DNA of 64,000 nt from an uncultured Caldilineales bacterium (GTDB lineage Bacteria > Chloroflexota > Anaerolineae > JAAEKA01), in the NCBI GenBank assembly GCA_937907455.1, contig CALESQ010000082.1:10898-74897 (forward strand). The letters are read 5' to 3'. Within the stretch, counting starts at the first letter, position 1, and the number at the start of each line of letters is the position of its first letter. Of the stretch, positions 4,117-62,020 are shown piece after piece. Both the position numbers and the translations under genes were made by a program. Below the pieces are notes generated by a model that ran no database searches, had not been told where the DNA came from, and saw only the letters and a list, made by a program, of their open reading frames with translations.

Positions 4117-4160
4117 TCGCGTTGACAACACGCCGCTGCATTGGCTGTTATGCGGGGTGA

Positions 4161-4616: not shown

Positions 4617-4644
4617 TTCACCTCAACCAACGGAAGTCGCAGCG

Positions 4645-5094
4645 CTAGCTTTGCGGTTCCGACGACTGTGCCGGCATTTGCAGCGTCAGGCGTTTCATAT
4701 GCGCCAAAATCGCGCCAATACCCTTCATGCGTTGCAGGCTGATCACCTGCTGCAAGCCCATCGCCTGAAAGAAATCGGCTGGCACGCCCAGGATTTCCTC
4801 GGCTGTAGAGCCGTTCAGCCCTTCGGCCATCAAGGCAGCATAGCCCCGTACCGTGGGCGCTTCCGGGGGCACATCAAAGAAAAACTCCATCAGGCTATCA
4901 TGTTGCTCGGCAGCCACAAACACCGGTGACATGCACTCATGCACCTGATCCATCTCAGCGTGGCCGGCCCAGCGCTCTGGCAGCGGCGGCAGGCTTTGCG
5001 CAAAATCCAGCAGCAAATCCAGCTTTTCACGGCCCTCGGCACTGGCAAATTCATCTACAATCGCTTTCAAGCGAGGGGGAAGAAGCGATGTCAT
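4645..5094 (-). CDS. sufE: SufE-like Fe-S metabolism associated protein
   Basis: 149 aa; the VHECMSPVFV segment matches the SufE VPGCQSQVWL active-site Cys motif; typical length. Confidence 0.65.
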   Translation of the reverse strand: MTSLLPPRLKAIVDEFASAEGREKLDLLLDFAQSLPPLPERWAGHAEMDQVHECMSPVFVAAEQHDSLMEFFFDVPPEAPTVRGYAALMAEGLNGSTAEEILGVPADFFQAMGLQQVISLQRMKGIGAILAHMKRLTLQMPAQSSEPQS

Positions 5095-5189
5095 GGGTAA
5101 AGCCCTTTCTCTGGAGAGAAATTATCGGTAACAGGTAACAAGTAGCCCGTCACTCAGATCGCAACACCCTGGTTGCCGACGCTGTCTCT

Positions 5190-5217
5190 TCTGAGTTACG
5201 AATTACGAGTTACGGAT
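5190..5217. repeat. four imperfect copies of the heptamer GAGTTAC (reverse complement of GTAACTC), just downstream of the BNR gene stop
   Basis: gagttacgaattacgagttacggattac seen directly; same family as the 10x GTAACTC array at 60244. Confidence 0.6.
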
Positions 5218-9080: not shown

Positions 9081-10625
9081 TCAGCGGTTGCGGCCATAGC
9101 GTTCGTGGCTGGATACCCAGTCGGATGAAGAAATCGCCGAGGCCAACGAAATTTCACCGGCCAACGCCACCGAAGCGACAATCTCGGCCAGCTTGTTCAC
9201 CGTGCCGCGGCCTGTGCAGCCCAGCAAGTCCAGACATTCGCGCTGGGTAGCCAGGCTGGTGCCGCCGCCGTGCGTAGCCACGATCAGCGAAGGAATGGTG
9301 AGCGCCATGTACAGATCAGCTTCCGGCGTCAGCTCGGCGTACAGGATGCCCGCCGACGACTCGGCTACGTTAGCCACATCCTGGCCGGTGGCGATGAACA
9401 TAGCGGTGATGCCGTTGGCCGAGTGTGCGCCGTTGTTGTTAGCTCCAGACAGGATTGCGCCGATATTGGCTATATTGAAATGATAGAAAAGCTGTTCCGG
9501 CTTGACGCGCATGTGTTGGATCAGCACATCGCGCTTGACCACGGCTTCGGCCACCACGCGCTTGCCGCGCGTGTGCATCACGTTCACCTGGCTGGCTTTC
9601 TTGTCGGTAGCCAGGTTCGATTCCAGATAGAAGTGGCGAATACCGGCATAGTTGTCCAGGATCCAGCTACAGGCTGCAAAAGTGGCGCGCCCCACCATGT
9701 TCTGCCCGGCCGCATCACCGGTAGTGAAGTTGAAACGCAAAAAGGCAAATTTGCTGGCCAGATAAGGGTCTATGTAAGACAGCCTGGCTACGCTGGAGGT
9801 AGCCTCGGCGTGATCACGAATTTCGGTCATGTTGGTGTTGACCCAACGCAGAAAATCGCGCGCGGCGCGGGCATCGTCAAACACAAACACCGGCGCGCGC
9901 TGCATGGCATCGCCGATTACCGTGGCCTCGACACCACCACTTAGGTTGAGCACTTTCATACCACGGTTATACGAGGCCACCAGTGTGCCCTCTGCCGTGG
10001 CCATGGGGATGATAAAATCGCCCTGGGCGTGTTCCCCGCGAATGGTGAGCGGCCCGGCAAAACCCAGCGGGATCTGGGCTACGCCGCTGAAGTTCTCGAC
10101 ATTGCCTGCGGTGATGTGTGCATCGAACGAGTAGTGGGGGATATGTTGCAGCTTGTTGCCGGTGAACTGCTCAACAAAATGCTGACGTTCTTTGATGATG
10201 GCTTCGCTGTAGTTGTCGGCGTTATCACGCGGGATCCTGATACTGTTGTCAACCTCGGTGTTCACCGCGCTGTCTACTTTCAGCGAAAGATTGCCGAAAC
10301 CTGCCGCGGTGAAGTTAATTTCCAGCTTGTGCATGCCCTCGGACAACGGCTTGATGCGGCAAATCACATCCATCATCTTGCGTAGGGGAAAATCCACTGG
10401 CTTTTCGGCCAAATCCTCCGGCTTGAGCTGTTCGCCAGTGTCCAGCAACACGGTGAGGGCCTCGCGCGGCACGGCTACGCCATCAAATTTCACGCTGTGC
10501 AAGGCCGTGACTTTGGTATCGCTCAGGCGGTTTTTGAGCGAAAAGCGCACACCGTCGGCAGTGTTGCGCAGGCTGTTGAATGTGTAGAGCTGCTTCAGCA
10601 CCATGCTGGGGATCGGCAAAGCCAT
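9081..10625 (-). CDS. hydroxymethylglutaryl-CoA reductase family protein with a ~130-aa N-terminal extension
   Basis: Class-I HMGR motifs: IPMATAEGTLVAS, TTGDAAGQNMV, ATGQD, THGGGT; GGAGG RBS 12 nt upstream of the ATG at complement 10625. Confidence 0.8.
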   Translation of the reverse strand: MALPIPSMVLKQLYTFNSLRNTADGVRFSLKNRLSDTKVTALHSVKFDGVAVPREALTVLLDTGEQLKPEDLAEKPVDFPLRKMMDVICRIKPLSEGMHKLEINFTAAGFGNLSLKVDSAVNTEVDNSIRIPRDNADNYSEAIIKERQHFVEQFTGNKLQHIPHYSFDAHITAGNVENFSGVAQIPLGFAGPLTIRGEHAQGDFIIPMATAEGTLVASYNRGMKVLNLSGGVEATVIGDAMQRAPVFVFDDARAARDFLRWVNTNMTEIRDHAEATSSVARLSYIDPYLASKFAFLRFNFTTGDAAGQNMVGRATFAACSWILDNYAGIRHFYLESNLATDKKASQVNVMHTRGKRVVAEAVVKRDVLIQHMRVKPEQLFYHFNIANIGAILSGANNNGAHSANGITAMFIATGQDVANVAESSAGILYAELTPEADLYMALTIPSLIVATHGGGTSLATQRECLDLLGCTGRGTVNKLAEIVASVALAGEISLASAISSSDWVSSHERYGRNR

Positions 10626-27710: not shown

Positions 27711-27730
27711 GAGGTCCCTCCTGTCTGAGC

Positions 27731-28945
27731 GTGGAATCAGGGTCTGGGCAGGTGCGCCGTGGTAAGCGACGAATCCGCGTGAGCATGGGATCAGGGTCTG
27801 GGCAGGTGCGCCGTGGTAAGCGGCGAATCTGCGTGAGTGTGGGATCAGGGTCTGGGCAGGTGCGCCGTGGTAAGCGACGAATCCGCGTGAGCGTGGGATC
27901 AGGGTCTGAGGGCAGGTGCGCCGTGGTAAGCGACGAATCCGCGTGAGCGTGGATGCCGCCCTGGCAGCGAGTCGACGTCTGCGGCGGCGCACCTGCCCTC
28001 ACGCGTGGCGCCGTGGTAAGCGGCGAATCCGCGTGAGCGTGGAATCAGGGTCTGGGCAGGTGCGCCGTGGTAAGCGGCGAATCCGCGTGAGTGTGGATGC
28101 CGCCCTGGCAGCGAGTCGACGTCTGCGGCGGCGCACCTGCCCTCACGCGTGGCGCCGTGGTAAGCGGCGAATCCGCGTGAGCGTGGAATCAGGGTCTGGG
28201 CAGGTGCGCCGTGGTAAGCGGCGAATCCGCGTGAGTGTGGATGCCGCCCTGGCAGCGAGTCGACGTCTGCGGCGGCGCACCTGCCCTCACGCGGTGCGCC
28301 GTGGTAAGCGGCGAATCCGCGTGAGTGTGGATGCCGCCCTGGCAGCGAGTCGACGTCTGCGGCGGCGCACCTGCCCTCACGCGTGGCGCCGTGGTAAGCG
28401 GCGAATCCGCGTGAGCGTGGATGCCGCCCTGGCAGCGAGTCGACGTCTGCGGCGGCGCACCTGCCCTCACGCGTGGCGCCGTGGTAAGCGGCGAATCCGC
28501 GTGAGCGTGGAATCAGGGTCTGGGCAGGTGCGCCGTGGTAAGCGGCGAATCCGCGTGAGTGTGGATGCCGCCCTGGCAGCGAGTCGACGTCTGCGGCGGC
28601 GCACCTGCCCTCACGCGCGGCCCTGGCAGCGAGTCGACATCTGCGGCAGCGCACCTGCCCTCACGCGCGGCGCCGTGGTAAGCGACGAATCCGCGTGAGC
28701 GTGGATGCCGCCCTGGCAGCGAGTCGACGTCTGCGGCGGCGCACCTGCCCTCACGCGTGGCGCCGCGGTAAGCGACGAATCCGCGTGAGCGTGGATGCCG
28801 CCCTGGCAGCGAGTCGACATCTGCGGCGGCGCACCTGCCATCACGCGCGGCGCCGTGGTAAGCGACGAATCCGCGTGAGCGTGGATGCCGCCCTGGCAGC
28901 GAGTCGACGTCTGCGGCAGCGCACCTGCCCTCACGCGCGCGCTCG
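27731..28945. repeat. REP/REPIN (BIME-like) array of about 17 tandem units built from two unit types (about 54 nt and about 90 nt); both carry GGCAGGTGCGCCG or its reverse complement plus GTGG heads
   Basis: Seen directly. Unit A: gtggRatcagggtctgggcaggtgcgccgtggtaagcgRcgaatccgcgtgagc. Unit B: gtggatgccgccctggcagcgagtcgacgtctgcggcggcgcacctgccctcacgcgtggcgccgtggtaagcggcgaatccgcgtgagc. Inverted REP pairs form REPIN hairpins. The array is adjacent to the RAYT gene. Confidence 0.8.
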
Positions 28946-28950
28946 TGCCC

Positions 28951-43818: not shown

Positions 43819-45096
43819 TCACCGATCACCGATCCATTCCACCACGGTTGCTTCGCCCTGGCCCACGCCCACACACAGGGTTACCAGGCCATAGCGCACG
43901 GGGTTGCCAGCCGCGGCGCGGCGACGCATCTCATGCACCAGGGTAGTCATCAACCGCGCGCCAGAGCAGCCCAGCGGATGCCCCAGGGCAATGGCGCCAC
44001 CGTTGACATTGGCCTGCGCCGGATCAATCTCCAGCTCGCGCAGGCAGGCAATGCTCTGCACCGCAAAGGCTTCATTGATCTCCACCAGACCTATGTCGGC
44101 CAGGCTGAGGCCCGCGCGCGCCAGCGCCTTGCGCGTAGCTGGCACCGGCCCCAGGCCCATTAGTCGCGGGTCTACGCCTGCCGCAGCCGAGGCCACAATG
44201 CGTGCCAGGGGCTTCATTCCAAGCGCCGCGGCGCGTTCGGCTGAGGTCAGCAGCAGCGCGGCCGCGCCATCGTTCAGCCCGCTGGAATTGCCCGCGGTCA
44301 CCGTGCCGCCCTTGCGAAAAATCGGCCCCAGCCTGGCAAGCTGCTCCAACGTAGTGTCCAGCACGATCTCGCCCGTTTCCTCGCGGCGGTAGCGCGGATG
44401 CTCATCCAGTGCCACTATCGTGGGTGGCCCCTTACGTTGAGCAATTGGCACAGGTGTGATCTCCTCAGCCAGCCGGCCCGCGGCCATAGCCGTCACCGCG
44501 CGGCGCTGGCTCTCGAAAGCAAAGACGTCCTGCTGTTCACGGCTGATCACACCGCCCGCTACCCCGCCCTGCATGCTTAATTCATAGATATTTTCAGCGG
44601 TTTCGCCCATTTGCTCCAGCGGAAACAATGCCTCCAGTCGCGGGTTGGGGTAGCGCCAACCCAACGTAGTGTCGTAGATGGTGGCATGACCGGTGGGATA
44701 GCTGCGCTCGGCCTTGGGCATAGAATAGGGTGAGCGGCTCATAGACTCCACGCCGCCAGCCAGATACACATCGCCTTCACCGGCCTTGATAGCGCGCGCA
44801 GCCTGGTTGATGGCGTTCAACCCAGAGGCGCACAGGCGGTTGAAGGTGACACCGGCCACCTGTTGCGGCAAACCGGCCAGCAGCACGGCCATGCGTGCCA
44901 CATCGCGGTTATCTTCACCGGCCTGGTTGGCGCAGCCCAGATACACTTCTTCGATCAGCGCGGGATCAAGGCCGGTGCGCTGGATCAACGCTTGCAGCGG
45001 CAGCGCGGCCAGGTCATCAGCGCGCACCGCGGCCAGTGCGCCGCCATGACGACCCACCGGCGTGCGGATAGCATCAAGGATCACAACATCGTGCAT
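43819..45096 (-). CDS. acetyl-CoA C-acyltransferase (thiolase)
   Basis: Thiolase signatures including the active-site Cys (LCASGLNAI) and C-terminal [11 protein letters not shown]; start taken at [15 protein letters not shown] with a GAGG RBS. Confidence 0.85.
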
Positions 45097-45330
45097 AGTA
45101 GCCTCGGGAGATAGGGTGAGGGAGTGAGAGGGTGACAAGGTGAGGGGGTGACAGGTAGCGGGGTGACTGCCATTCCCAAACTAACCTGAATATCGCTTGG
45201 GCCTGTCTTCGACCGTGCCCGTGCGTTTCATCCATGAATGACTGTTTACTGGATACTGCGCACTGGGTACCCTTGCAGTTTGCCTTGCGGTGCATTCTAC
45301 CATAGAATCAAGCTGCAAAGGAGAATTGCT

Positions 45331-47921: not shown

Positions 47922-48332
47922 ATGGACCCCCGTATCAGCATTATTACCCTTGGTGTAACCGATCTGGCTCGCAGCACGGCTTTTTATCGCGAAGGGTTCG
48001 GCTTTCCCTATCTGGCAGAGAGCAGCAGCGACGACATCGCGTTCTTCGAGATAAACCGCGGCTCGCTGCGTCTGGCGCTATACCCGCGGGCCGCGCTGGC
48101 CGAAGATGCCACAGTGGCCGACGCGCCGTGCAGCTTCCCTGGCTTCACCCTGGCCCACAATCTGCGCACGACGGAAGAGGTGGATGCAGCCTTCGCGCAT
48201 CTGCTTGCCGCAGGTGCGCGGGCCATCAAGTCACCGCAAAGCGTATTCTGGGGCGGTTATTCATCGTATATTGCCGACCCCGACGGTTTCCTTTGGGAAA
48301 TTGCGCATAACCCCTTCTCGTGGATCGAATAA
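47922..48332 (+). CDS. VOC (glyoxalase/bleomycin resistance) family protein
   Basis: 136 aa with a paired beta-alpha-beta-beta-beta module pattern. Confidence 0.65.
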   Translation: MDPRISIITLGVTDLARSTAFYREGFGFPYLAESSSDDIAFFEINRGSLRLALYPRAALAEDATVADAPCSFPGFTLAHNLRTTEEVDAAFAHLLAAGARAIKSPQSVFWGGYSSYIADPDGFLWEIAHNPFSWIE

Positions 48333-50526: not shown

Positions 50527-50650
50527 TGTGGGCGCAGCCGCGCGCCAGCTCGTTTTTGTTCTTGACACCCACACCCAGCGATTTTATACTGCACGCTCCG
50601 GCTTCTGGAAGCCGACGCCAGCATTTTTTTCTCAAAAGGACGATGAACGC

Positions 50651-51214
50651 ATGAACAGCCATCAGAACTTGTCACCGGAACAGCGCGACGCATTGCTCGC
50701 CACGCTGCAAGCCCGTTTCGAGAAGAATAAACAACGCCATGCGGGTCTGGCGTGGAGCGATGTCCAGGCCCGGCTCGCCGCTGATGCAGCAAAGCTGTGG
50801 TCGCTCAGTGAAATGGAACGAACCGGCGGTGAGCCGGATGTGATCGGACAGGACGATCAGACGGGGGCGTATCTGTTTTGCGACTGCGCGGCGGAAAGCC
50901 CCAAGGGTCGCCGCAGCCTGTGTTACGACCGCGCCGCGCTCGATGCCAGGAAAGAATACAAGCCGGAAGATAGCGCGGTGGATATGGCCGCGGCGATGGG
51001 GATTGAGCTGTTGACCGAAGCGCACTATCGCGCCCTGCAAACGCTGGGCAAGTTTGATCTGAAGACGTCGAGCTGGGTCGCCACCCCCGCGGCGATTCGG
51101 GAACTCGGTGGTGCGGTTTTCTGTGACCGCCGCTACGACACAGTTTTCCTCTACCACAACGGCGCCGAGTCGTACTATGCCGCGCGCGGCTTCCGCGGCT
51201 TGCTGCGCGTCTGA
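50651..51214 (+). CDS. DUF4256 domain protein
   Basis: 187 aa from MNSHQNLSPEQRDALLATLQARFEKNKQRH; AAGGA RBS. Confidence 0.55.
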   Translation: MNSHQNLSPEQRDALLATLQARFEKNKQRHAGLAWSDVQARLAADAAKLWSLSEMERTGGEPDVIGQDDQTGAYLFCDCAAESPKGRRSLCYDRAALDARKEYKPEDSAVDMAAAMGIELLTEAHYRALQTLGKFDLKTSSWVATPAAIRELGGAVFCDRRYDTVFLYHNGAESYYAARGFRGLLRV

Positions 51215-51240
51215 CATTGCACACCACCCATTAACCGAAC

Positions 51241-52080
51241 ATGCGCAGCGATCACCCTCTCTTCAAGCAATACCCGGTGGACAGCCAGGTGCTTATCGCA
51301 GGCGAACATTGTCCCAGCCCTTATCACATCTACGATGGTTCGATTCTGTTCATCGGTGGCACGGTGGCTGGTACGACAGCGCGCCAGCTTCTGGCTAACG
51401 AGCGGCTCGCCCCCATCATGGATCAAAATGATCGGGCACTGGCCGCGCTTTGGGTCTGCGATTTCACCGAGGCTAATCTGGGGCCGCATCACGAACTACA
51501 AATCTCCCTGTTCGCCTCCGTTGATCCCGTGCCACCGGTGCGCGCCCATCCGTTTGCCATCCATCGGACGCTGGTCAACGACCGCGCAACGCGCATGGTG
51601 TGTCACGGGCTTTGGAACAATACCGCCAAAGTGGTGGGCTACAACACTCAACATCTCGGCTTGAACGCGCGTCGGGGCCACAGCGACATCACGCGGGGCC
51701 GCGGGCGCTGGCAGTTCCGGGTGAGCGACGACAACGGGCTGGTAGCAACCGGCGATCTGGCGCTGCCGGCGCGGGCTGCGCCGGTGCAACTGGCAGCGAT
51801 GATGCAGCATATCGGCGTCAAGGGCCTGCTTCGCTCCCTGCGCACGCCCTACGTCCACGTACCTGTGGTCAATACGCGCAACCGCTTTGCCGACGATAAC
51901 CGGGTGGCGCATACCTATACCCGAAACGATAACCAGGTCATTCGACGGTTCACCGCGCAGGATCAGCTTTCAATTCACTACCCGCAAGCGGCGGTGCTGG
52001 ATTTCGCGCCGGACTTTGTCCAGCACAACGAGGGCGTGCGCTTTGTCTATCTGCGACCAGAGCCGGAAGGCCCGGCTTGA
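51241..52080 (+). CDS. hypothetical protein (possibly acetoacetate decarboxylase-like fold)
   Basis: 279-aa ORF with coding-like composition; no firm motif. Confidence 0.35.
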   Translation: MRSDHPLFKQYPVDSQVLIAGEHCPSPYHIYDGSILFIGGTVAGTTARQLLANERLAPIMDQNDRALAALWVCDFTEANLGPHHELQISLFASVDPVPPVRAHPFAIHRTLVNDRATRMVCHGLWNNTAKVVGYNTQHLGLNARRGHSDITRGRGRWQFRVSDDNGLVATGDLALPARAAPVQLAAMMQHIGVKGLLRSLRTPYVHVPVVNTRNRFADDNRVAHTYTRNDNQVIRRFTAQDQLSIHYPQAAVLDFAPDFVQHNEGVRFVYLRPEPEGPA

Positions 52081-52179
52081 GCGGTCAACCAACAGCGCTG
52101 CTGCTATCTTATCCACGTCTGTAGTCGGGGGGCATCGTGCTTTGGGCACGCGCGGGCCGCGCCCGCGTCCTGAAACTTG

Positions 52180-52344
52180 GGTTGTGTATGGATTTCGGTT
52201 GAAATGTGTTGCCACCGAATCGAATTCGGTGTCTCAAGCCACGAAGCCCCTGTCGGGGCTTTCGGAGAGCGCCTGAGTGCGCTTCGTTCTTTAAGCCGGA
52301 ACCATTGATTGTCCGGCTCTTATAATTCAACCGAAAGTCGCACA
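52180..52344 (+). mobile_element. MITE-like element, copy 2 (flanked by the 8-bp direct repeat GAAACTTG)
   Basis: gaaacttg at 52172-52179 and again immediately after the element; internal hairpins (accgaatcgaattcggt, gaagcccctgtcggggcttc, agccggaaccattgattgtccggct); lies 260 nt upstream of ccr. Confidence 0.6.
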
Positions 52345-52606
52345 TTATCGAAACTTGCCAAAAGCGCCCGCTTATGACACAATGCGTCATGACGTTAATC
52401 TGGTAACGTTCCGCTTTTTTTGGGTAGGTGATTGTCATGCAACCGTGGGCCTCGACGATGATAGCCCAGTCTGCTTGCGCGGCGCACAGGCGCTTTTTTT
52501 CGCCTGCACTGATTGATCGCGCCCTTCCCCTGCCTGCTTGCTCCCTTTCCGCTTCCCATTATTTTCCCCCCGTAAACCTGATACTGTGCGCAAGGAGGCC
52601 ACAACG

Positions 52607-54880
52607 ATGAGCGAACTCAAGGAATTATATGCCGTTGGCGAACAGCCACCGGTAGGCCATGTACCGCCTCAGATGTATGCCTGGATGGTGCGCCCGGAAC
52701 GCTTTGGCGAGCCGACTAAGGCCTGGCAGGTCGAAGTGATTGACACGCCGGAGCCTGCCGACGACGAAGTCCTCGTGTATGTGATGGCCGCGGGCGTCAA
52801 CTACAACAATGTTTGGGCTGGCCTGGGCATTCCGGTGGACGTCATCGGCGCGCGCAACAAGGCCGGCGAGCCGGAGCGCTTCCACATCGGCGGCAGCGAC
52901 GCCAGCGGCATTGTTTACAAAGTTGGCAAGGATGTCACCACCCACAAGGTCGGCGACGAGGTGGTCATCCACTGCGGCACCTGGAGCCGCGACGATCCCT
53001 GGGTCAAGGCGGGCGAAGACCCGATGTACAGCCCAACCTTCCGTATTTGGGGCTATGAAACCAACTGGGGCAGCTTTGCGCAGTTCACCAGGGTGCAGGC
53101 GCACCAGTGCCTGCCGCGCCCCCAGCACCTCACCTGGGAGCAATCCGCAGCCTATATGCTGGTAGGCGCGACCGCCTACCGCATGTTATACGGCTGGGCC
53201 GAACACGCCCTGCGCAAGGATGACATCGTGCTGATCTGGGGCGGCGCGGGTGGTCTCGGCTCGATGGCGATTCAGATCGTCAAGGCCGCAGGCGGCAAGG
53301 CCATCGCCGTGGTCAGCGAAGATGACAAGTTCGACTACTGCAAGAACCTCGGCGCAGTAGGCTGCATCAACCGCAAGAATTTCAACCATTGGGGCATGTT
53401 GCCACACTGGAAAGACACCGTCGGCTACAACGAATGGCTAAAGGGCGTGCGCGGCTTCGGCAAGGCTATTTGGGACGTGCTGGGCGAGCGCAAAAGCCCG
53501 CGTATCGTCTTTGAACACCCCGGCGAGACCACCATCCCCACCTCGATCTTTGTCTGCGACACCGGCGGTACGGTGGTGATCTGTGCCGGCACCACCGGCT
53601 ACAACGCCACGGTAGACCTGCGCTACCTGTGGATGCGCCAGAAACGGCTGCAAGGCTCACATTTTGCCAACGACGAGCAATCCAAGGGCTTCAACGATCT
53701 GGTGCTGGCTGGCAAGGCCGATCCGTGCATGTCGCGTGCCTTCACCTGGGACGAATTGCCCTTCTCGCATCAACTGATGTACGAGAACAAGCATCCCTTC
53801 GGCAATATGTCTATTCTCATCGGCGCGCCCGATTTTGGCCTGGGCATTCACAAACCCGAACCTGCGGGCGCGGTACATGTGGAAGCACCCGCCGAGCCGC
53901 GTGCCGCCGAGAACTTCTATCGTGCGCCGCTGCATCCTGTAGATGAAGCCAAACCGGAAACCGCCGTGGTTGAAGACACCCGCCTGGTGCGCGAGATGAT
54001 GCACTACGGCGTGATTGCCTGTTCGCTGGGCACGCCGATAGACGAAGTAGCCCAACGTATGAGCGACTATCATATACATGCTGTTGTGGTTACCGATGCC
54101 GAAGGCTATGCTGCGGGCATTGTATCACAAACCGATGTAGTGTTGGCGCGGCAAGGGCGCGCCAGCCAGGAACTGGCCGCTCTGACTGCCGGCGACGTGA
54201 TGAGTCGCCATGTGGTGAGCTGTACACCCGACACCACCATCTCTGAGGCCATCACCCTGATGACCCGCAACCATATTCACCGGCTGGTTGTGGCCGACAA
54301 GCGTGGTGCCAAACCGTGGCCGGTAGGAGTATTGAGCATGACCGATATTATCACTTATGGCATGCAAGCACCGCACAGCGGCGCACCTGCCATGTCGCTG
54401 CCGCCCTCACTGATGGCAAGCGACATCTACGAGCCTATGACCCTTGAACCCAGCCTGGAAGACCTGAGCGCGCTGCACGAAGCCAACACCGTGAGCGATA
54501 TCATGCACATCGGTGTGGTGAGCTGCCCCCGCTCCGCCTCGGTGATGGATGCCGCACGCAAAATGCTCGATCAGGGCATCCATGCCGTGGTGGTGGTAGC
54601 CGATGATGGTCACGCGGTGGGCGTGGTGTCGCAAACCGATGTAGTGCTGGCACGCCAAGGACGCACCGTAGAGCAGGCAGCAGCGCTTAGCGTGGGCGAT
54701 ATCATGACTCCCACACTGGTAAGCTGCACCCGCGACCGTGCCCTTTCCGAAGCCATCACTCTGATGACGCGCAACCGGGTACACCGCCTGGTAGTAGTGG
54801 AAGATCAGAACGGCAAGCTGATGCCGGTGGGCATTCTCAGCATGACCGACGTGATCCGCCAGTTCTTCAGCAAAAACTAA
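52607..54880 (+). CDS. ccr: crotonyl-CoA carboxylase/reductase fused to four C-terminal CBS domains
   Basis: N-terminal 440 aa match Ccr along the whole length ([122 protein letters not shown]). C-terminal 330 aa are two Bateman modules (four CBS repeats). AAGGAGG RBS 8 nt before the ATG at 52607. Confidence 0.8.
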
Positions 54881-54897
54881 GCGAAGGAAAACTTGCC

Positions 54898-56067
54898 ATG
54901 ACAGTACTTACCGGTGAATACGAAACCGTACGACGCGAAGCGCGCAAATTCGCTGAAAAAGAAGTTGCGCCCATAGCCCATGACCTGTACAACGAAGGCA
55001 AAGAAATCCCGATGGAGATCATCAAGAAGATGGCCAACCTGGGCTACTTCGCGATGGCGATCCCGGAGGAATACGGCGGTCTGGGCATGGACACGCTGAC
55101 CATCACACTGGTCACCGAAGAATTGAGCCGCGTTTGGCTGTCGGTCGGTTCGGTGATGACCCGCATGTTGATCGCGGGCGGGCTGATCCTGAACGGCGGC
55201 ACGGAAGAGCAAAAGGAACGCTGGCTGCCCGGCATTGCCACGGGCGATGTGCTGCCCGCCGCAGCCTTCACCGAACCAAACGCCGGGTCGGACACCGCAG
55301 GTATGCAGTTGCGCGCGGTGAAGCAGGGCAACAAATACATTCTGAACGGCGCCAAAACCTGGATCACCTTCGCCAACCGCGCCAACCTGATGACCGTGCT
55401 GGCCCGCACCGATCCTGATGCAAGTAAACGGCACAAGGGCTTGTCCATGATCGCCGTGGAGAAGGCCCCCGGCAACGACTTTATGCCGCCGCACCTCACC
55501 GGCGCGCCCATTCCTACCATCGGCTACTACGGCATGAAATCGTTCAGCCTGAACTTCGAAGATTTTGAAGTGCCCGCGGAGAACGTCATCGGTGGCGTGG
55601 AGGGCAAAGGCTTCTACCAGCTCATGGGCGTGTACGAGACCGCCCGCATCCAGACCGCGGCCCGCGCCGTGGGTGTGGCGCAGGGCGCGTACGAGGCCGC
55701 GCTGCAATACGCGCAGGAGCGTGAGCAGTTTGGCCGCCCGCTGTCCGATTTCCAGGTGATCCAGCACAAGATCGCACACATGGCGACCGACATCGAGGCC
55801 GCGCGCCAGCTCACCTATTACGCCGCGCAGAAGAAAGATTCGGGCCAGCGCTCGGATTTGGAAGCGGGCATGGCTAAGCTGTTCGCCGCGGACATGGTGG
55901 AGAAAGTCACCAGCGACGCCTTGCAGATCTTCGGCGGCTACGGCTACGCCATGGAGTATCCGGCGCACCGCTTCTGGCGTGATGGCCGCATCTTCAAGAT
56001 ATTTGAAGGCACCAGCGAAATCCAGGCCGAAGTCGTCGCCAAGCGGCTTATCCCTGAGCGTAAGTAG
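54898..56067 (+). CDS. acyl-CoA dehydrogenase (short form; candidate methylsuccinyl-CoA or short/branched-chain acyl-CoA dehydrogenase)
   Basis: 389 aa; ACAD signatures (TEPNAGSD, catalytic region YGGYGYAMEYPAHRFWRDGRIFKIFEGTSEIQ). Confidence 0.85.
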   Translation: MTVLTGEYETVRREARKFAEKEVAPIAHDLYNEGKEIPMEIIKKMANLGYFAMAIPEEYGGLGMDTLTITLVTEELSRVWLSVGSVMTRMLIAGGLILNGGTEEQKERWLPGIATGDVLPAAAFTEPNAGSDTAGMQLRAVKQGNKYILNGAKTWITFANRANLMTVLARTDPDASKRHKGLSMIAVEKAPGNDFMPPHLTGAPIPTIGYYGMKSFSLNFEDFEVPAENVIGGVEGKGFYQLMGVYETARIQTAARAVGVAQGAYEAALQYAQEREQFGRPLSDFQVIQHKIAHMATDIEAARQLTYYAAQKKDSGQRSDLEAGMAKLFAADMVEKVTSDALQIFGGYGYAMEYPAHRFWRDGRIFKIFEGTSEIQAEVVAKRLIPERK

Positions 56068-56071
56068 TCCA

Positions 56072-56104
56072 GCGTAAGGAGTAAGGAGACGTTTTTGCCT
56101 CCTT
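56072..56104 (+). other. stem-loop ggagtaaggag-acgtttttg-cctccttactcc immediately after the ACAD stop
   Basis: Seen directly; possible intra-operon attenuator or terminator. Confidence 0.3.
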
Positions 56105-56146
56105 ACTCCTCGCTTCTCACTACTTACTGTGTAATCGGAGACCCTT

Positions 56147-57598
56147 ATGAACCTAACCTTCACCCCCGAAAGCATCGCCGGTGTAGTCCAAAACATTGAA
56201 GCTGCCAACGAAGGCTTCCGCGCGCTCTATCCCGGCGACGTGACCACACGCCAACCGGTACACACCGTCTACGGCGGCGCGCATTTGTTCAAATCTGACA
56301 CGGCCAGCAAGCTGGGCGGCATCGCCCTGCGCAACATGGACGCCTACGCGCCCAACTTCGTTGCCTTCGCCAAGGCGCTGGGCCTGCCCGGCGCGGCTGC
56401 GCTGCCCGACACCACCGCGGATGTCGAGCATCTGGCGCAGATCATCGCCAAAGACCCGGAAGCGGCCAGCTTCAGCCACGAACCGGCCTGGATGGCCTAC
56501 ACCGTCTACCAGCGCGTGCGCGAAAAGCTGCAACGCGAGCCGGTGGAAGATTACCGCGTCGACTTTGAAGACGGCTACGGCAACCGCCCGGACGAGGAAG
56601 AAGACATACACGCGGTCAACGTCGGCAAGGAACTGGCCGCAGGCATCGAAAACGGCAAGCTGCCGCCCTTCATCGGCATCCGCATCAAGCCGTTCACGCT
56701 GGAAAGCTACCGGCGGGCCGTGCGCACCCTCGACCTGTGCATTACCACGCTGGCGCAGGCCAGCGGCGGCAAAGTGCCCGCCAACTTCGTCATCACCCTG
56801 CCCAAAGTGACGATGCCAGAGCAGGTCACCGCGCTGGCCGATCTGGTGGATCAACTGGAAGCGAAAAACGGCATCCAGCCGGGTGCAATCGGCCTCGACC
56901 TGATGATCGAAACACCGCAGGCGATCATTGACGACACCGGTGCAAACACGGTCAGCCTGCTCGTGCGGGCGGGCCGCGGGCGCGTGCGCTATTGCGCGTA
57001 TGGAACCTACGACTACACCGCGCTGGTCAACATCACGGCGCACTATCAGACGCACACCCACCCCGCGGCGGATTTTGCCCGCCACGTCATGCAGGTGAGC
57101 CTGGCCGGTACGGGCGTCAGCATCAGCGACGGCGCCACCACCATTATGCCCATTGGCCCGCACCGCGCCACCAAGGAAACGCCCTTGACCGCGCAGCAGG
57201 AAGCGGAAAATATGGCTGTGGTGCAGGCGGCTTGGAAGCTGCACTACAACAACGTGCGCCACTCGCTGCGCCACGCCTTCTACCAGGGCTGGGACCTGAA
57301 CCCGGCACAGTTGCCGGTGCGCTACGCCGCCGTCTACACCTTCTTTCTGGAAAGCCTGGATGATGCCAGCAAGCGGCTCAACCGCTTTGTGGATGCGGCC
57401 GCGCAAGCTACGCTCAGCGGCAACATGTTCGACGACGCAGCTACCGGCCAGGGCTTGCTGAACTTCTACCTGCGCGGCATTGCCTGCGGTGCGATCACCG
57501 AGGAAGAAGCCACCTCCACCGGCGTCACGCTGGAAGAGTTGCGCGGCCGCTCGTTCGTGAAGATCGTGCAGAACCGGGCGTATAAAAAGACGCTGTAA
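56147..57598 (+). CDS. HpcH/HpaI aldolase / citrate-lyase-beta (CitE) superfamily protein, malyl-CoA lyase-like, unusually long (483 aa)
   Basis: DFEDGYG (equivalent to DLEDsV), IGIRIKP, LDLMIETPQAI and AYGTYDYTALVNI match CitE/malyl-CoA lyase catalytic motifs; GGAG RBS. Confidence 0.5.
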   Translation: MNLTFTPESIAGVVQNIEAANEGFRALYPGDVTTRQPVHTVYGGAHLFKSDTASKLGGIALRNMDAYAPNFVAFAKALGLPGAAALPDTTADVEHLAQIIAKDPEAASFSHEPAWMAYTVYQRVREKLQREPVEDYRVDFEDGYGNRPDEEEDIHAVNVGKELAAGIENGKLPPFIGIRIKPFTLESYRRAVRTLDLCITTLAQASGGKVPANFVITLPKVTMPEQVTALADLVDQLEAKNGIQPGAIGLDLMIETPQAIIDDTGANTVSLLVRAGRGRVRYCAYGTYDYTALVNITAHYQTHTHPAADFARHVMQVSLAGTGVSISDGATTIMPIGPHRATKETPLTAQQEAENMAVVQAAWKLHYNNVRHSLRHAFYQGWDLNPAQLPVRYAAVYTFFLESLDDASKRLNRFVDAAAQATLSGNMFDDAATGQGLLNFYLRGIACGAITEEEATSTGVTLEELRGRSFVKIVQNRAYKKTL

Positions 57599-57698
57599 GT
57601 AATGCGTAACTCGTAACCGGATTTGATAGCTTTGGCTGCAAGGTTGTCAGACTCTGGATTATGAGGTACGAGTTACGTGCCATGTTTGGGAGTTTTCT

Positions 57699-59396
57699 AT
57701 GACAGACCCCCATTTCCACCCCCTTGCCGATGCGCTGCACGCCTGGGAAACCGGCGATCTGGCAAAGTCCACCGAGCGCGCGCCGGAACGCGCGGAAACC
57801 GAGGCGTTTCCGCGGCTGGCAACACCACTCGATGCCGGGCCGCAGCCGCCCGCTGCGGCTGATCAGCAATGGTATCTGGACAAGCTGAGCTTTCCCGGCC
57901 AGTATCCCTTCACGCGCGGGGTGCAGCCCACCATGTACCGTTCCCGCTTCTGGACGATGCGCCAGTATGCGGGCTATGGCACGGCGGCCGAGGCCAACGA
58001 GCGCTTCAAATACCTGCTGGGCCAGGGTCAAACCGGCCTTAGCATCGCCTTCGACCTGGCGACACAGATCGGCTACGACAGCGACGACCCGCTGGCTGCG
58101 GGCGAGGTGGGGCAGGCAGGCGTGGCGATTGACTCGCTGGCTGACATGGAGGCGCTACTCGACGGCATTCCGCTGGACAAGGTCAGCATCAGCATGACCA
58201 TCAACGCGCCGGCCAGCGTGCTGTTGGCGATGGTGATCGCCGCGGGCGAGGCGCGCGGCGTGCCTGCGGCCAAGCTCACCGGCACGATCCAGAACGACAT
58301 CCTGAAGGAATACGTCGCGCGCGGCACCTACATCTTCCCGCCCGGCCCCAGCGTGCGCCTGGCCGCGGATACCATCGCATTCTGCGCGCGCGAAGTGCCG
58401 CGCTGGAACGCGATCAGTGTCAGCGGCTACCACATCCGCGACGCGGGCAGCACCGCCGCGCAGGAGATGGGCTTTGCCATCGCCAATGCGCTGGCCTATC
58501 TGGACGCAGTGCTGGCGCGCGGCGTAGCGATTGATGACTTCGCGGGCCGCATCTCCTGGATTTTCAACACGCAAAACAACTTCTTCGAGGAAGTCGCCAA
58601 GTACCGCGCCCTGCGCCGCCTGTGGGCCACGCTGCTCAAGGAACAGTACGGCGCGCAAAAAGCCTCCAGCATGACCCTGCGCACGCACGTTCAGACCGGT
58701 GGCGCGACCCTCACCGCGCAGCAGCCGCTGAACAACATTGCCCGCGCCGGCTTTCAGGCTCTCGCCAGCGTGCTGGGCGGCATCCAAAGCATGGCTTTGA
58801 GCTGCTACGACGAGGCGTTGGCGCTGCCCACCGAGGAAGCACAGGCCACCGCGCTGCGCACGCAGCAGATCATCGCCCACGAAATCGGCGTGTCCGAGGT
58901 AATTGATCCGCTGGCAGGGTCGTATTACGTCGAAAGCCTCACGGACCAGCTCGAAGCCGAAGCGCTGGCCCTGATCAACAAGGTGCAGGAGCTGGGCGGC
59001 TCGGTGCAAGCCATCGAAAGCGGCTGGATGCAGCAGCAGATCGCGGATTCGTCCTGGCGGATGCAAAAGGCTGTCGAGGCGGGCGAGCAGATCATCGTCG
59101 GCGTCAACGCCTACCAGTCGCCCGGCGAGGAACGGCCCGTGGGCATCTTCCGCCCCGACCCCGAAACCTACCGCACCCAGCACGCCCGCCTGGAGCAGCT
59201 CAGGGCGACGCGCGACCAGGCCACGGTGCAAGCTGCGCTCAGCCGGTTGCGCGCCGTAGCCCAGGCCCCCGCTGGCCCCGACAGCAACCTGATGCCGCCC
59301 ATTCTCGACGCGGTGCGCGCCTACGCCACGCTGGGCGAAATCTGCGGCGTGCTGCGCCAGGAATGGGGCGAATACGAACCGCCGACTGTTATTTAA
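57699..59396 (+). CDS. methylmalonyl-CoA mutase family catalytic (large) subunit with no B12-binding domain (IcmA/HcmA/Ecm-like)
   Basis: 565 aa; FPGQYPFTRG, MYRSRFWTMRQYAGYG, GQTGLSIAFD, TIQNDILKEY and RTHVQT match the mutase TIM-barrel domain; no Rossmann B12 domain. Confidence 0.85.
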   Translation: MTDPHFHPLADALHAWETGDLAKSTERAPERAETEAFPRLATPLDAGPQPPAAADQQWYLDKLSFPGQYPFTRGVQPTMYRSRFWTMRQYAGYGTAAEANERFKYLLGQGQTGLSIAFDLATQIGYDSDDPLAAGEVGQAGVAIDSLADMEALLDGIPLDKVSISMTINAPASVLLAMVIAAGEARGVPAAKLTGTIQNDILKEYVARGTYIFPPGPSVRLAADTIAFCAREVPRWNAISVSGYHIRDAGSTAAQEMGFAIANALAYLDAVLARGVAIDDFAGRISWIFNTQNNFFEEVAKYRALRRLWATLLKEQYGAQKASSMTLRTHVQTGGATLTAQQPLNNIARAGFQALASVLGGIQSMALSCYDEALALPTEEAQATALRTQQIIAHEIGVSEVIDPLAGSYYVESLTDQLEAEALALINKVQELGGSVQAIESGWMQQQIADSSWRMQKAVEAGEQIIVGVNAYQSPGEERPVGIFRPDPETYRTQHARLEQLRATRDQATVQAALSRLRAVAQAPAGPDSNLMPPILDAVRAYATLGEICGVLRQEWGEYEPPTVI

Positions 59397-59790
59397 GTAG
59401 ACAAGTACACAAGTAGACAGGTAGACAAGTAGACAGGTAGACAAGTACATAAGTAGACAGGTAGACAAGTAGGCAAGTAGACAAGTACATAAGTAGACAG
59501 GTAGACAAGTACATAAGTAGACAGGTAGACAAGTAGACAGGTAGACAAGTACATAGAGGACCATTTTGTGTACTCATCCCCGTGTACTTGTGTACTCATT
59601 CCCGTGTACTTGTGTACTCACTCCTTGTGTACTCATCCCTTGTGTACTTGTGTACTCATCCCTTGTGTACTCATCCCTGTGTACTTGTGTACTCATCCCT
59701 TGTGTACTCATCCCCTGTGTACTTGTGTACTCATCCCTTGTGTACTTGTGTACTCATCCCTGTGTACTCTCCTCAGGAGACCCCTATGCT
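59397..59790. repeat. two adjacent octamer-type tandem repeat arrays filling the mutase-hydratase intergenic region (GTAGACAa/GTACAtAa, then GTGTACTt/GTGTACTCATCCCt)
   Basis: Seen directly at 59398-59555 and 59565-59775; both contain the palindromic core GTAC. Confidence 0.8.
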
Positions 59791-60247
59791 CGACCAAAGT
59801 TACATTGGCAAGAAGCTGCCGACGATCCGCTATCAGGTGGATGCCAGCAAGATCCGTGAGCTGGCCGGTGCGCTGGGCGACGATAACCCGCTGTTCCATG
59901 ACAAAGCCGCCGCGCAGGCCGCGGGCTATGATGACATTGTAGCACCGCTGACTTTTCCCACGCTGTTCCGCTTCTGGGGTGGCACGGCCGCGGGCGCAGA
60001 AACGCGCAGCCTGCTGCAACAGATGGGCGCGAACGTGCTGCGCATCCTGCACGGCGAAGAAGAATACGAATACTTCAGCCCCTTGCAGCCGGGTGATGAC
60101 ATCAGCGGCGAACTGGAAATCCTCAGCATTGATCGCAAAGAGGGCAGTTCCGGCGCGATGGATATGGTCAAAACGCAGGCTACTTACCGCGATCAAAACG
60201 GCGATGTGAAGGCGATCACCCGCGCCACGATGGTGGTGCGGTGGTAA
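59786..60247 (+). CDS. MaoC-like dehydratase, N-terminal-type (non-catalytic hot-dog) subunit
   Basis: 153 aa from MLDQSYIGKK; AGGAGA RBS; a hot-dog fold partner gene follows. Confidence 0.7.
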   Translation: MLDQSYIGKKLPTIRYQVDASKIRELAGALGDDNPLFHDKAAAQAAGYDDIVAPLTFPTLFRFWGGTAAGAETRSLLQQMGANVLRILHGEEEYEYFSPLQPGDDISGELEILSIDRKEGSSGAMDMVKTQATYRDQNGDVKAITRATMVVRW

Positions 60248-60313
60248 CTCGTAACTCGTAACTCGTAACTCGTAACTCGTAACTCGTAACTCGTAACTCG
60301 TAACTCGTAACTC
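60244..60313 (+). repeat. (GTAACTC)x10 perfect heptanucleotide tandem repeat; its first unit overlaps the TAA stop of the preceding gene
   Basis: Seen directly; related CGTNTTA x4 at 60352-60378 and gtaactcgtaacc at 57603-57615. Confidence 0.9.
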
Positions 60314-60426
60314 GAAGCATACCATCCTTGCAGTCTGTGATGTCAAATCCGTGTTACGCATTACGTATTACGTGTTACAGAACGCTGATAGGTCCGCCTG
60401 CCATTGGCATGGAACGAGGATAATTC

Positions 60427-60840
60427 ATGACCCCCAACTACGAAACCATCCAGGTTGGCGACGCGCTGCCCAGCCTGAGCAAGCCCGCGATCACGGAAGT
60501 GCAACTGGTGCGCTACAGTGGTGCGAGCGGCGACTTTAACCCCATCCACACCGTGCATCAGGCGGGCGTGGACAGCGGCAACGGCGGCGTGATTACGCAC
60601 GGCATGGTGATTATGGGGTTCGTCGGCCAAATGATCACCAATTGGGTGCGCCCTGACCAGGTGCGCAAGTTCGGTGTGCGCTTCACCGGCATCAGTCGGC
60701 CCGGCGACGAGATCACCGTCACGGGCAAGGTCATCGAGAAGTTCATGGTGAACGGCGAGCCGCGCGTGCGCTGCGAAGTAGAAGCCGCGGATCAGGCTGG
60801 TCAGCGCAAGGTGAAAGGCGAGTTCGTCGCCGCGCTGTAA
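60427..60840 (+). CDS. MaoC family (R)-specific enoyl-CoA hydratase, catalytic hot-dog subunit
   Basis: SGASGDFNPIHTVHQAG...ITHGM hydratase motif (D...H). Confidence 0.75.
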   Translation: MTPNYETIQVGDALPSLSKPAITEVQLVRYSGASGDFNPIHTVHQAGVDSGNGGVITHGMVIMGFVGQMITNWVRPDQVRKFGVRFTGISRPGDEITVTGKVIEKFMVNGEPRVRCEVEAADQAGQRKVKGEFVAAL

Positions 60841-61056
60841 TTCTCTTCTTAATCCCAAGAAATTTGTAGCTGTCACTACATCTTTTTGCAGCGATCAACG
60901 GTATGCTTGCTTAAGCACGCGTCCAGGAATAACTCTCGAAATAGCCGGGTCATCAATTGCGCACCATCCCGAAGTCGCCGGTCAAAACAGGATGTTATTC
61001 TTGGCTAGTTCTAAGCAAAATCCTTACCCTAAATCGTTTTCAACAGGAGATAAAAG

Positions 61057-61545
61057 ATGACAACAAAGACTTTCAACACCAGCATTGATTTACCTGCTAA
61101 GACTCGCACGGCTATGGTGGCATTGCTCAACCAGCAATTGGCCGATAGCAGCGATCTATACACCCAAACCAAACATGCCCATTGGAACGTCAAAGGCCCG
61201 CAGTTCATTGCGCTGCATGAGCTCTTCGACGACTTAGCCGAAGGGCTTGAAGGACACATGGACGAAATCGCCGAGCGTGCATCAGCACTGGGCGGTCACG
61301 TCATGGGTACAGCACGCATGGCCGCGGCTGCCTCTACCCTGCCTGAGTATCCTGCAGGCGTGTTTGGCAGCATGGAAACCGTCGCTGCATTGGTCGAGCG
61401 CTACGCCGCGCTGGCCAAGTCTACTCGGGCCGCCATTGACACTGCGGACAAAGCCTCAGATGCAGACACCGCCGATCTATTCACGGGTGTTTCCCGCTTC
61501 CTGGATAAGTCCCTGTGGTTCCTGGAGGCTCATACACAGGCGTAA
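61057..61545 (+). CDS. dps: Dps (DNA protection during starvation) ferritin-like protein
   Basis: HWNVKGPQFIALHELFDD...ferroxidase residues; 162 aa. Confidence 0.85.
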   Translation: MTTKTFNTSIDLPAKTRTAMVALLNQQLADSSDLYTQTKHAHWNVKGPQFIALHELFDDLAEGLEGHMDEIAERASALGGHVMGTARMAAAASTLPEYPAGVFGSMETVAALVERYAALAKSTRAAIDTADKASDADTADLFTGVSRFLDKSLWFLEAHTQA

Positions 61546-61614
61546 AAGCTTGCTTCAATACGCTAACGAGCCTTGCCGTGTGGCAAGGCTCGTTTCTTTA
61601 ATGCGAGGAAAACA

Positions 61615-61893
61615 ATGGATTTTCATCTCGACGATCTTGTCTTGCGCCATAACAAAGAAGAAAAATGCTTTGAAGCCCTGCTCCAGGACCATCGGTTGGC
61701 TCATGTGCAGTACCAGTGCGAGCCGGGACGCATGATATTTACTCACACCGTGGTGCAACCTGCGGCCCGCGGCAAAGGGGTAGCCGGCCAGTTGGTGCAA
61801 CACGCACTGAACTACGCCCGCGCTGAAGGGTTGACTCCTGTGCCGGTCTGCTCCTACGTCCAGCGCTACTTAAAGGAGCATCCGCAGGCATAA
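61615..61893 (+). CDS. small GNAT-fold N-acetyltransferase (YjdJ-like)
   Basis: 92 aa from MDFHLDD; GKGVAGQLV acetyl-CoA binding motif; GAGGA RBS. Confidence 0.55.
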   Translation: MDFHLDDLVLRHNKEEKCFEALLQDHRLAHVQYQCEPGRMIFTHTVVQPAARGKGVAGQLVQHALNYARAEGLTPVPVCSYVQRYLKEHPQA

Positions 61894-61990
61894 CCGGCAC
61901 AGAATGGCAAAGCGAGCTTTGCTCGGCTTGACGCTGTGGTTATTTTGCCTATAATTCGTACCGTACCAACAATGAACGGTTGGCAGGCCG

Positions 61991-62020
61991 ATCCGCCCTT
62001 GCAGGCGGATTGTTTTTTTA
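61991..62020 (+). terminator. intrinsic terminator (gatccgccc-ttgc-aggcggat followed by TTTTTTT)
   Basis: GC stem plus a T-run, seen downstream of the GNAT gene. Confidence 0.6.

Follow-up and report, generated by a model that had tools for sequence, protein, structure and literature searches.

A candidate variant of the ethylmalonyl-CoA pathway in Caldilineales, with a CBS-fused carboxylase/reductase and a DUF6986 protein in the position of the lyase

A cluster of six genes, all on the + strand between positions 52607 and 60840 of a 64-kb stretch of Caldilineales (Chloroflexota) DNA, probably encodes a variant of the ethylmalonyl-CoA (EMC) route of acetate assimilation, namely its C5 branch, built in part from non-orthologous components; we regard the full scheme as fairly probable. 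The stretch as a whole is called the window here, and all coordinates are window positions unless another locus is named by an L-number. Contigs of a Caldilineales metagenome-assembled genome (GCA_040275545.1, ENA ERZ795037) match the window. Read in this way, the cluster represents an established pathway in a new form, of which a hypothesis on the function of the protein family DUF6986 and the wide occurrence of a crotonyl-CoA carboxylase/reductase (Ccr) fused to CBS domains are the most interesting by-products. Nothing on an EMC pathway in Caldilinea was found in the searchable literature.

In the proposed sequence of reactions, crotonyl-CoA would be reductively carboxylated to ethylmalonyl-CoA by Ccr, a protein whose domain identity is clear and whose activity is expected from it. 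A split B12-dependent mutase, with its B12 subunit encoded elsewhere, would then form methylsuccinyl-CoA, a role suggested by gene context and by the residues Tyr89/Arg207, and a short methylsuccinyl-CoA dehydrogenase (Mcd), the active site of which largely matches that of the Paracoccus enzyme (PdMCD), would oxidize it to mesaconyl-CoA. A HadAB-type heterodimeric (R)-hydratase, assigned by its position in the cluster, would produce beta-methylmalyl-CoA, which the DUF6986 protein would split into glyoxylate and propionyl-CoA, possibly also condensing glyoxylate with acetyl-CoA. The DUF6986 protein is thus likely a (beta-methyl)malyl-CoA lyase or the enzyme of a malate-synthase step, and within this cluster we favour the lyase, probably acting also on malyl-CoA like Mcl1. 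The mutase and the hydratase are the weakest links of the scheme.

Gene order and its conservation

The cluster (Table 1) consists of six real genes in one orientation, as the first-pass annotation of this DNA had stated. The short gaps that it had described are not found at every junction, the spacers measuring, in order, 17, 79, 100, 389 and 179 bp. Its beginning of the Ccr gene at 52180 falls inside the 526-bp upstream spacer; the start given by the public gene call, and found in the homologues, is the ATG at 52607, and the longest open reading frame (ORF) begins with a TTG at 52538. A 221-amino acid (aa) ORF from 59582 was ruled out as the MaoC-N gene, as it reads through a repeat array.

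The same seven-ORF order is found in a second Caldilineales metagenome-assembled genome (MAG; locus L005), with proteins 50-80% identical and spacers of 29-109 bp, which shows that the arrangement has been conserved and did not arise by chance. This bears on the view that the genes are unconnected neighbours, Ccr providing, for example, the extender unit ethylmalonyl-CoA, or the MaoC pair serving fatty-acid metabolism. Such a view could appeal to the very stable hairpins in the 389- and 179-bp spacers and to the fact that the characterized HadAB-type hydratases use acyl-ACP or steroid-CoA, but the order is kept with tight spacing in L005, no polyketide synthase (PKS) or fatty acid synthase (FAS) genes are present among the scanned window ORFs, and the linkage of Ccr-CBS, Mcd and DUF6986 extends across phyla, so that we consider it very improbable.

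Table 1. Positions of the cluster genes, their domains, the repeats in the spacers and two DUF6986 loci of the purine type
Feature	Position	Strand	Remarks
Ccr-CBS	52607-54880	+	757 aa
Ccr part	aa 1-~430, nucleotides (nt) 52607-53896	+	TIGR01751
Two Bateman modules (four CBS domains)	about nt 53990-54358 and 54488-54871	+	PF00571
Acyl-CoA dehydrogenase	54898-56067	+	389 aa
DUF6986 protein ('lyase')	56147-57598	+	483 aa
Hairpin of inverted GTAAYNC heptamers	57599-57676	+	directly after the DUF6986 stop codon
Mutase large (substrate-binding) subunit	57699-59396	+	565 aa
Two opposed arrays, AAGTAGAC-type then GTGTACTT-type	59395-59769	.	Tandem Repeats Finder (TRF), inverted repeats
MaoC-N, HadA-like	59786-60247	+	153 aa
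Perfect (GTAACTC) heptamer array	60244-60314	.	TRF, 10.1 copies, 100% matches
Further GTAAYNC-type heptamer/octamer repeat sites in spacers	60340-60380, 5193-5220
MaoC-C, HadB-like	60427-60840	+	137 aa
Purine-type DUF6986 examples	L082 5551-11437; L057 9932-19214

Crotonyl-CoA carboxylase/reductase

Residues 18-415 of the first protein match the model TIGR01751 with 549 bits, well above its equivalog cutoff of 378.55, which upholds the crotonyl-CoA carboxylase/reductase identity assigned in the first-pass annotation. The best matches in the PDB are 9kva, AntE and the Methylobacterium extorquens Ccr 4gi2 (503 bits), while actinobacterial enoyl-CoA carboxylases/reductases including that of Kitasatospora setae (6owe) score about 268 bits. 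The carboxylation residues are in place: the motifs VNYNN (N65), WGYETN (Y150/E151) and GSHFAN (H352) are identical to those of the carboxylating 4gi2, and N65, Y150/E151 and H352 correspond, in a mapping by motif and offset only, to K. setae Asn81, Phe170/Glu171 and His365, the tyrosine in place of Phe170 occurring also in 4gi2 and AntE and throughout the clade. Since the motifs are the same as in 4gi2, the enzyme is predicted to be of the carboxylase type and not a plain reductase.

The fusion of Ccr to two Bateman modules was also recovered, with four PF00571 stretches that total 172.9 bits (Pfam) and a second module that is a clear duplicate of the first. Each of the four CBS domains carries the motif G-h-h-S-x-T-D, which in CBS domains contacts the ribose of adenosyl ligands, and the double module probably puts Ccr under adenosyl-ligand control. 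The fusion is not an oddity of one genome but is widespread across phyla, PF00571 being present in all 120 of the 120 best database matches of Ccr-CBS; among these, forms with one CBS pair (~590 aa) come from Delta- and Gammaproteobacteria and Myxococcales and forms with two pairs (~760 aa) only from entries labelled Caldilineales/Chloroflexi. CBS modules on most close relatives of Ccr imply a control of the carboxylase at the metabolite level that is undescribed in the searchable literature, where nothing joining Ccr with a CBS domain was found.

Short methylsuccinyl-CoA dehydrogenase

The second protein contains all three domains of an acyl-CoA dehydrogenase (ACAD) and no N-terminal extension. 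Its best PDB match is PdMCD (6es9; 413 bits, runner-up 343 bits), its alignment covers PdMCD residues 167-550, that is, the core without the N-terminal extension, and it shares 43% identity with the core of the gammaproteobacterial HdN1 Mcd. In PdMCD, R252, R376 and R421 bind the carboxylate and E535 is catalytic, and the pocket formed by A285/F287 fits the C2-methyl group and disfavours succinyl-CoA (PMC5798300). Of the PdMCD residues, S248, R252, A285, F287, T418, R421 and E535 are kept as S85, R89, A122, F124, T253, R256 and E370. With the pocket for the methyl branch retained, along with two of the three arginines that bind the carboxylate, these residues argue for methylsuccinyl-CoA as the substrate. 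An Mcd-like dehydrogenase lacking the Mcd N-extension, as first annotated, is thus what the comparison with PdMCD reveals, and since that extension imitates the second dimer seen in ordinary ACADs, the short Mcd is probably, by analogy, a tetramer of the ordinary ACAD type.

Family and fold of the DUF6986 protein

The third protein had been annotated as a long lyase of the CitE/HpcH type, a designation which could not be maintained. It matches only PF22484 (DUF6986), with 586 bits; neither PF03328 (HpcH/CitE) nor PF01274 reached the threshold in Pfam, and the malyl-CoA lyase (Mcl) model NF041626 gave 20.9 bits against a cutoff of 500. Sequence and profile searches of the PDB retrieved no significant relative and only marginal matches to Mcl, and an hhalign comparison with a CitE-like lyase was non-significant (probability 4.5%). 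In the alignment of the DUF6986 family profile with Mcl, the segments LPKV, IET, GTYDY, GWDLNPAQ and DDAAT weakly align with the corresponding segments of the lyase. The closest folds to the structural model are malate synthase and malyl-CoA lyase, malate synthase A being the nearest, and both the fold and the arrangement of metal-binding and catalytic motifs are those of the malate synthase/CitE TIM-barrel superfamily. On this model, DUF6986 is to be placed in the superfamily of malate synthase, malyl-CoA lyase and CitE, and we propose that it is an Mg2+-dependent acyl-CoA enzyme that forms or consumes glyoxylate.

With 483 aa, the protein is longer than Mcl (5ugr, 4l7z; ~320-350 aa), shows no significant sequence match to any solved structure and is shorter than the malate synthases A and G (MSA/MSG, 530-720 aa; the structures compared for synthases A, G and H were 3cux, 1n8i and 3oyx). 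An additional helical N-terminal region of ~115 aa distinguishes it from Mcl and malate synthases alike and varies across the family: many members (P0363-P0510) have ~440 aa and match only profile positions ~116-478, which means that in much of the family these N-terminal ~115 aa vary or have been replaced. The family is no more a genome-specific peculiarity than the CBS-fused Ccr is, as it comprises more than 8000 word-sharing sequences and 822 clusters at 50% identity (E<=1e-30), was matched in at least 598 species genomes and is widespread across phyla, Chloroflexota and Gammaproteobacteria proteins being 61-65% identical. Nothing on DUF6986 or PF22484, or on a phosphoenolpyruvate kinase in connection with the EMC pathway, was found in the searchable literature. 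DUF6986 is thus a widespread, uncharacterized family, apparently of a glyoxylate enzyme, that takes the place of the usual EMC lyase.

Genomic contexts of DUF6986

The gene neighbourhoods of DUF6986 were surveyed at the 80 best-scoring genome loci and in HdN1, and the proportions given here are not family-wide frequencies. An EMC-type context is present at 8 of the 80 loci. In HdN1, other Gammaproteobacteria and Accumulibacter, DUF6986 occurs with a long Mcd, a fused mesaconyl-CoA hydratase (Mch; PF19315), an ethylmalonyl-CoA mutase (Ecm) that includes the B12 domain, and MeaB; Ccr-CBS adjoins these proteobacterial runs at some loci, a MAG labelled Rickettsiales has a run of Ccr-CBS, DUF6986, Mcd, Mch and Ecm, and L005 represents the Caldilineales layout. 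At least 10 contigs are apparently common to the match lists of Ccr-CBS and DUF6986. A canonical Mcl was not recognized in the EMC-type gene runs, the spacers of which were not exhaustively annotated. The EMC reading of the Caldilineales cluster, already put forward in the first-pass annotation, is strongly reinforced by these proteobacterial loci, where DUF6986 adjoins the canonical Mcd, Mch, Ecm and MeaB as well as Ccr-CBS.

At the Accumulibacter locus L011, three divergent genes (2683-6595, - strand) lie directly upstream of a DUF6986-Mcd-Mch-Ecm-MeaB-Ccr-CBS run. They encode a 2-methylfumaryl-CoA isomerase, which scores 844 bits with TIGR04253 (cutoff 725), together with a MaoC hydratase and a CitE-like lyase, and so make up the citramalyl branch of the 3-hydroxypropionate bi-cycle; in this organism, acetyl-CoA and pyruvate may thus be a further destination of mesaconyl-CoA. 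The searchable literature yielded nothing on an Accumulibacter EMC pathway with malyl-CoA lyase.

The second and more frequent context is purine catabolism, found at 56 of the 80 loci (L012-L084) in Acidobacteriota, Bacteroidota and other phyla. Neighbours there include an OHCU (2-oxo-4-hydroxy-4-carboxy-5-ureidoimidazoline) decarboxylase (51), allantoinase (42), a PuuD-like urate hydroxylase (29), xanthine dehydrogenase (XDH) subunits (23-26) and uricase (13), assignments that NCBIfam supports, and 147 ORFs of 23 purine loci additionally contain 5-hydroxyisourate (HIU) hydrolase (HIUase; 21) and allantoicase (14). A Hymenobacter operon (L082) joins allantoinase, allantoate amidohydrolase, ureidoglycine aminohydrolase, OHCU decarboxylase, HIUase and DUF6986. 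Near the purine-type loci, neither a ureidoglycolate lyase nor a malate synthase was recognized. Many families of seemingly conserved neighbouring ORFs in high-GC loci were discarded as antisense shadow ORFs. Neither context was seen at 16 of the 80 loci, and none has both. The EMC-linked proteins form a single clade in a neighbour-joining (NJ) tree, with the purine-linked ones as sister clade; the two differ at the fixed positions H303/M, T332/N, N369/H, N426/D and A446/N.

Both contexts yield glyoxylate, with no releasing enzyme recognized among the scanned genes, and DUF6986 stands in that slot: the family accompanies EMC genes across phyla at the expected position of the lyase, and its sister clade stands at the expected last glyoxylate-forming or glyoxylate-consuming step of purine catabolism. 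Tentatively, and with clearly less confidence than in the EMC scheme itself, one may go further and see in DUF6986 glyoxylate-releasing lyases of a family not recognized before, which would have taken over from two unrelated enzymes, Mcl1 in the EMC clade and the ureidoglycolate lyase AllA in the purine sister clade, with Ccr under CBS control in the same organisms. If this were true, one active site would cleave glyoxylate adducts of the form X-CH(OH)-COO- at a C-C or a C-N bond, and the family would replace Mcl1 in Chloroflexota, Gamma-/Betaproteobacteria and others and ureidoglycolate lyase in Acidobacteriota and Bacteroidota.

Alternatively, the cluster could serve the EMC pathway with DUF6986 as a glyoxylate consumer of the malate-synthase type, which would make malate from glyoxylate and acetyl-CoA, with or without a separate thioesterase, and do the same job in the purine clusters, the beta-methylmalyl-CoA lyase being encoded elsewhere. 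The top fold match agrees with a malate synthase, and so does the 55% identity between the EMC-linked and the purine-linked proteins, which argues for one common reaction. A malate synthase would, however, leave both kinds of cluster without a final glyoxylate-releasing enzyme: no Mcl was recognized in the EMC runs, and the ureidoglycolate lyase family PF04115 is absent from the 25 most frequent families among the 147 neighbouring ORFs of the 23 purine loci. It would also have to accommodate the fixed differences T332/N and N426/D, which lie beside conserved motifs. Nothing relevant that links malate synthase and ureidoglycolate was found in the searchable literature. We rate the malate-synthase alternative as unlikely, somewhat below the displacement of both lyases.

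Mutase, hydratase and the strength of the scheme

Several observations weigh against the EMC scheme with a DUF6986 lyase. Besides the identity of DUF6986 across its two contexts, the confidence of the DUF6986 model is only moderate (predicted local distance difference test, pLDDT, 70), and the dehydrogenase has Y211/S215 in place of PdMCD R376/E380. The B12-binding subunit, MeaB and the epimerase were not found in the 64-kb window, so that the full core logic of the EMC pathway, which the first-pass annotation had seen within 8 kb, is not contained there. Pfam detected no epimerase, Mcl, propionyl-CoA carboxylase (PCC), B12 subunit or electron-transfer flavoprotein (ETF) in 30 further window ORFs, and tblastn of the HdN1 MeaB, B12 domain and canonical Mch against the window gave no match. 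A glyoxalase-fold gene at 47922-48332 was dropped as a candidate epimerase, as it has no NCBIfam epimerase match. The remaining points concern the mutase, the hydratase and the spacers.

The mutase contains PF01642 and TIGR00641 only and, as described before, no B12-binding domain (PF02310). In this it resembles the large subunits of the split mutases, such as HcmAB (4r3u) and the archaeal and Chloroflexota-type methylmalonyl-CoA mutases (MCM), and its PDB scores are 547 bits for HcmA and 441-463 bits for MCM. Aligned with the MCM of Propionibacterium shermanii and human, HcmA and four cluster-linked Ecm proteins, it has the MCM-like residues Y89, Q197, R207, Y243, H244, H328, Q330, Q361 and S362 and differs from both MCM proteins by F287I, W334A, H364A, N366S and Y75Q. 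HcmA has Ile90, Gln208 and Asp117 where the mutase has Tyr, Arg and Ala, and the signature of isobutyryl-CoA mutase (ICM) is Phe at 89 and Gln at 207. Because Tyr89/Arg207 are kept, the substrate is predicted to be carboxylated, unlike the non-carboxylated substrates of HcmA and Icm, and substrates of the ICM and 2-hydroxyisobutyryl-CoA mutase (HCM) type are excluded on these residues; a grouping with isobutyryl-CoA mutase, which had been named as a possible refutation of the EMC reading, is accordingly spoken against by the same pair.

The mutase, which had been given an Ecm-like role before, is not an orthologue of Ecm. Identity to the cluster-linked Ecm proteins is 37-44%, and their common residues G328, V331, N332, R361 and A362 are absent, the mutase having H328, T331, G332, Q361 and S362. 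Mutases of Dehalococcoidia (L085 10001-11707, L087 10001-11716), which are 65-67% identical to it and share the unusual Q75, I287, A/S334, A364 and S366, occur singly among housekeeping genes, with neither EMC genes nor a B12 subunit in their vicinity. These stand-alone relatives and the dissimilarity to Ecm mean that the window mutase may be an ordinary methylmalonyl-CoA mutase. Its substitutions mark a Chloroflexota clade of split mutases, and the WIFN/GGAT residues were dropped as a mark of an EMC-specific paralogue, being present in the stand-alone homologues of Dehalococcoidia. The Ecm role is hence contextual, taken from the cluster.

An ordinary MCM is also the starting point of a reading outside the EMC pathway, in which the cluster would serve a homologous C4 series or propionate/acrylate metabolism, leading from acrylyl-CoA via methylmalonyl-CoA to succinyl-CoA and perhaps on via fumaryl-CoA and malyl-CoA to acetyl-CoA and glyoxylate. 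Acrylyl-CoA is a known substrate of Ccr enzymes, DUF6986 has relatives among the malyl-CoA lyases, and H328, T331, Q361 and S362 of the mutase are as in MCM and unlike Ecm, with relatives that stand alone. The dehydrogenase, on the other hand, keeps the A285/F287 pocket that in PdMCD fits the methyl group and disfavours succinyl-CoA, genuine Ecm-, Mcd- and Mch-type genes occur in homologous DUF6986 clusters, and the smaller residues of the mutase at F287, W334 and H364 are compatible with a bulkier substrate. We consider this C4 route improbable and retain the C5 branch of the EMC pathway as the more probable function of the cluster.

The two-gene Mch-like hydratase of the first-pass annotation proved real as a split MaoC pair and is unrelated to Mch. 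MaoC-N matches PF13452 (98 bits) and the HadA model NF040624 (70 bits), with 5i7n, 4rv2_A and HadA as PDB matches, and is 76% identical to its L005 orthologue. MaoC-C matches PF01575 (64.5 bits) and the HadB model NF010246 (63 bits), with 4rv2_B and HadB in the PDB, and carries SGDFNPIH, which fits the hydratase-2 motif [ST]-G-D-x-N-P-[LIV]-H. MaoC-N would thus be the HadA-like, non-catalytic and MaoC-C the HadB-like, catalytic hot-dog subunit. The mycobacterial (R)-hydratase heterodimers HadAB/HadBC and MSMEG_1340/1341 are likewise encoded by neighbouring small hot-dog genes, a degenerate one (PF13452) followed by one with the hydratase-2 motif; the window pair, of low identity to them (29-60 bits), stands in a context of CoA-ester central metabolism and not of mycolic-acid FAS-II. 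There is no PF19315 match to canonical Mch, and blastp of the pair against the HdN1 Mch gave a non-significant E of 0.018 at best. By position, the pair is inferred to take the place of Mch; it could equally be a crotonase of the CroR type, that is, an (R)-3-hydroxybutyryl-CoA dehydratase feeding Ccr.

Comparison with known ethylmalonyl-CoA gene sets

The EMC sets of Rhodobacter sphaeroides, Methylobacterium extorquens and Streptomyces (ccr, ecm/meaA, mcd, mch, mcl1) have the same succession of enzyme classes, namely a carboxylating enoyl-CoA reductase, a B12 mutase, an ACAD of the methylsuccinyl-CoA type, a MaoC hydratase and a glyoxylate lyase of the CitE/malate-synthase superfamily. The window cluster differs from them in a Ccr with four CBS domains, which is closest to the M. 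extorquens type, in an Mcd without the 170-aa N-extension and R376/E380, in a split-type large mutase subunit in place of an Ecm orthologue, in a HadAB-type heterodimer for the fused Mch, in DUF6986 for the HpcH/CitE-type Mcl1, and in having no epimerase or MeaB gene nearby. Mcd, mutase and Mch would thus each be replaceable by simpler or split versions. If confirmed, these points would improve pathway prediction from metagenomes, in which such organisms would now be scored as lacking a complete EMC or purine-to-glyoxylate route.

Repeats in the spacers and neighbouring genes

The heptamer array that had been reported between the two halves of the hydratase is present as a perfect repeat, and the window contains 15 14-mer matches, with 0.1 expected. 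The AAGTAGAC/GTGTACTT octamer arrays fill the spacer between mutase and MaoC-N and can pair into a hairpin of ~170 bp (RNA fold -165 kcal/mol, z -10.6), and the hairpin downstream of the DUF6986 gene folds with -42.2 kcal/mol (z -5.8). The repeat elements of the cluster are absent from the orthologous L005 spacers and are therefore local insertions. The structured 389- and 179-bp spacers may interrupt co-transcription, which is the last of the points that count against the EMC scheme. Consensus scans for promoters and terminators showed neither to be enriched over shuffled sequences, and an Rfam scan of 51000-62000 (E<=1) detected no cobalamin or other riboswitch.

A thiolase gene (43819-45138, - strand), 7.5 kb upstream of the cluster, could be its source of acetoacetyl-CoA. 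Directly upstream of Ccr-CBS and on the same strand, a 279-aa protein that matched neither Pfam nor NCBIfam (51241-52080, + strand) and, before it, a DUF4256 protein (50528-51214, + strand) are encoded, a pair that is preceded by a TetR regulator and a divergent P450. Elsewhere in the window, a 3-hydroxy-3-methylglutaryl-CoA (HMG-CoA) reductase gene is located at 9081-10625 (- strand). Nested tandem repeats with periods of 54, 90 and 144 bp and up to 98% matches extend from 27726 to 28947, flanked by genes for a urocanase and a HEAT-repeat protein, and overlap ORFs on both strands.

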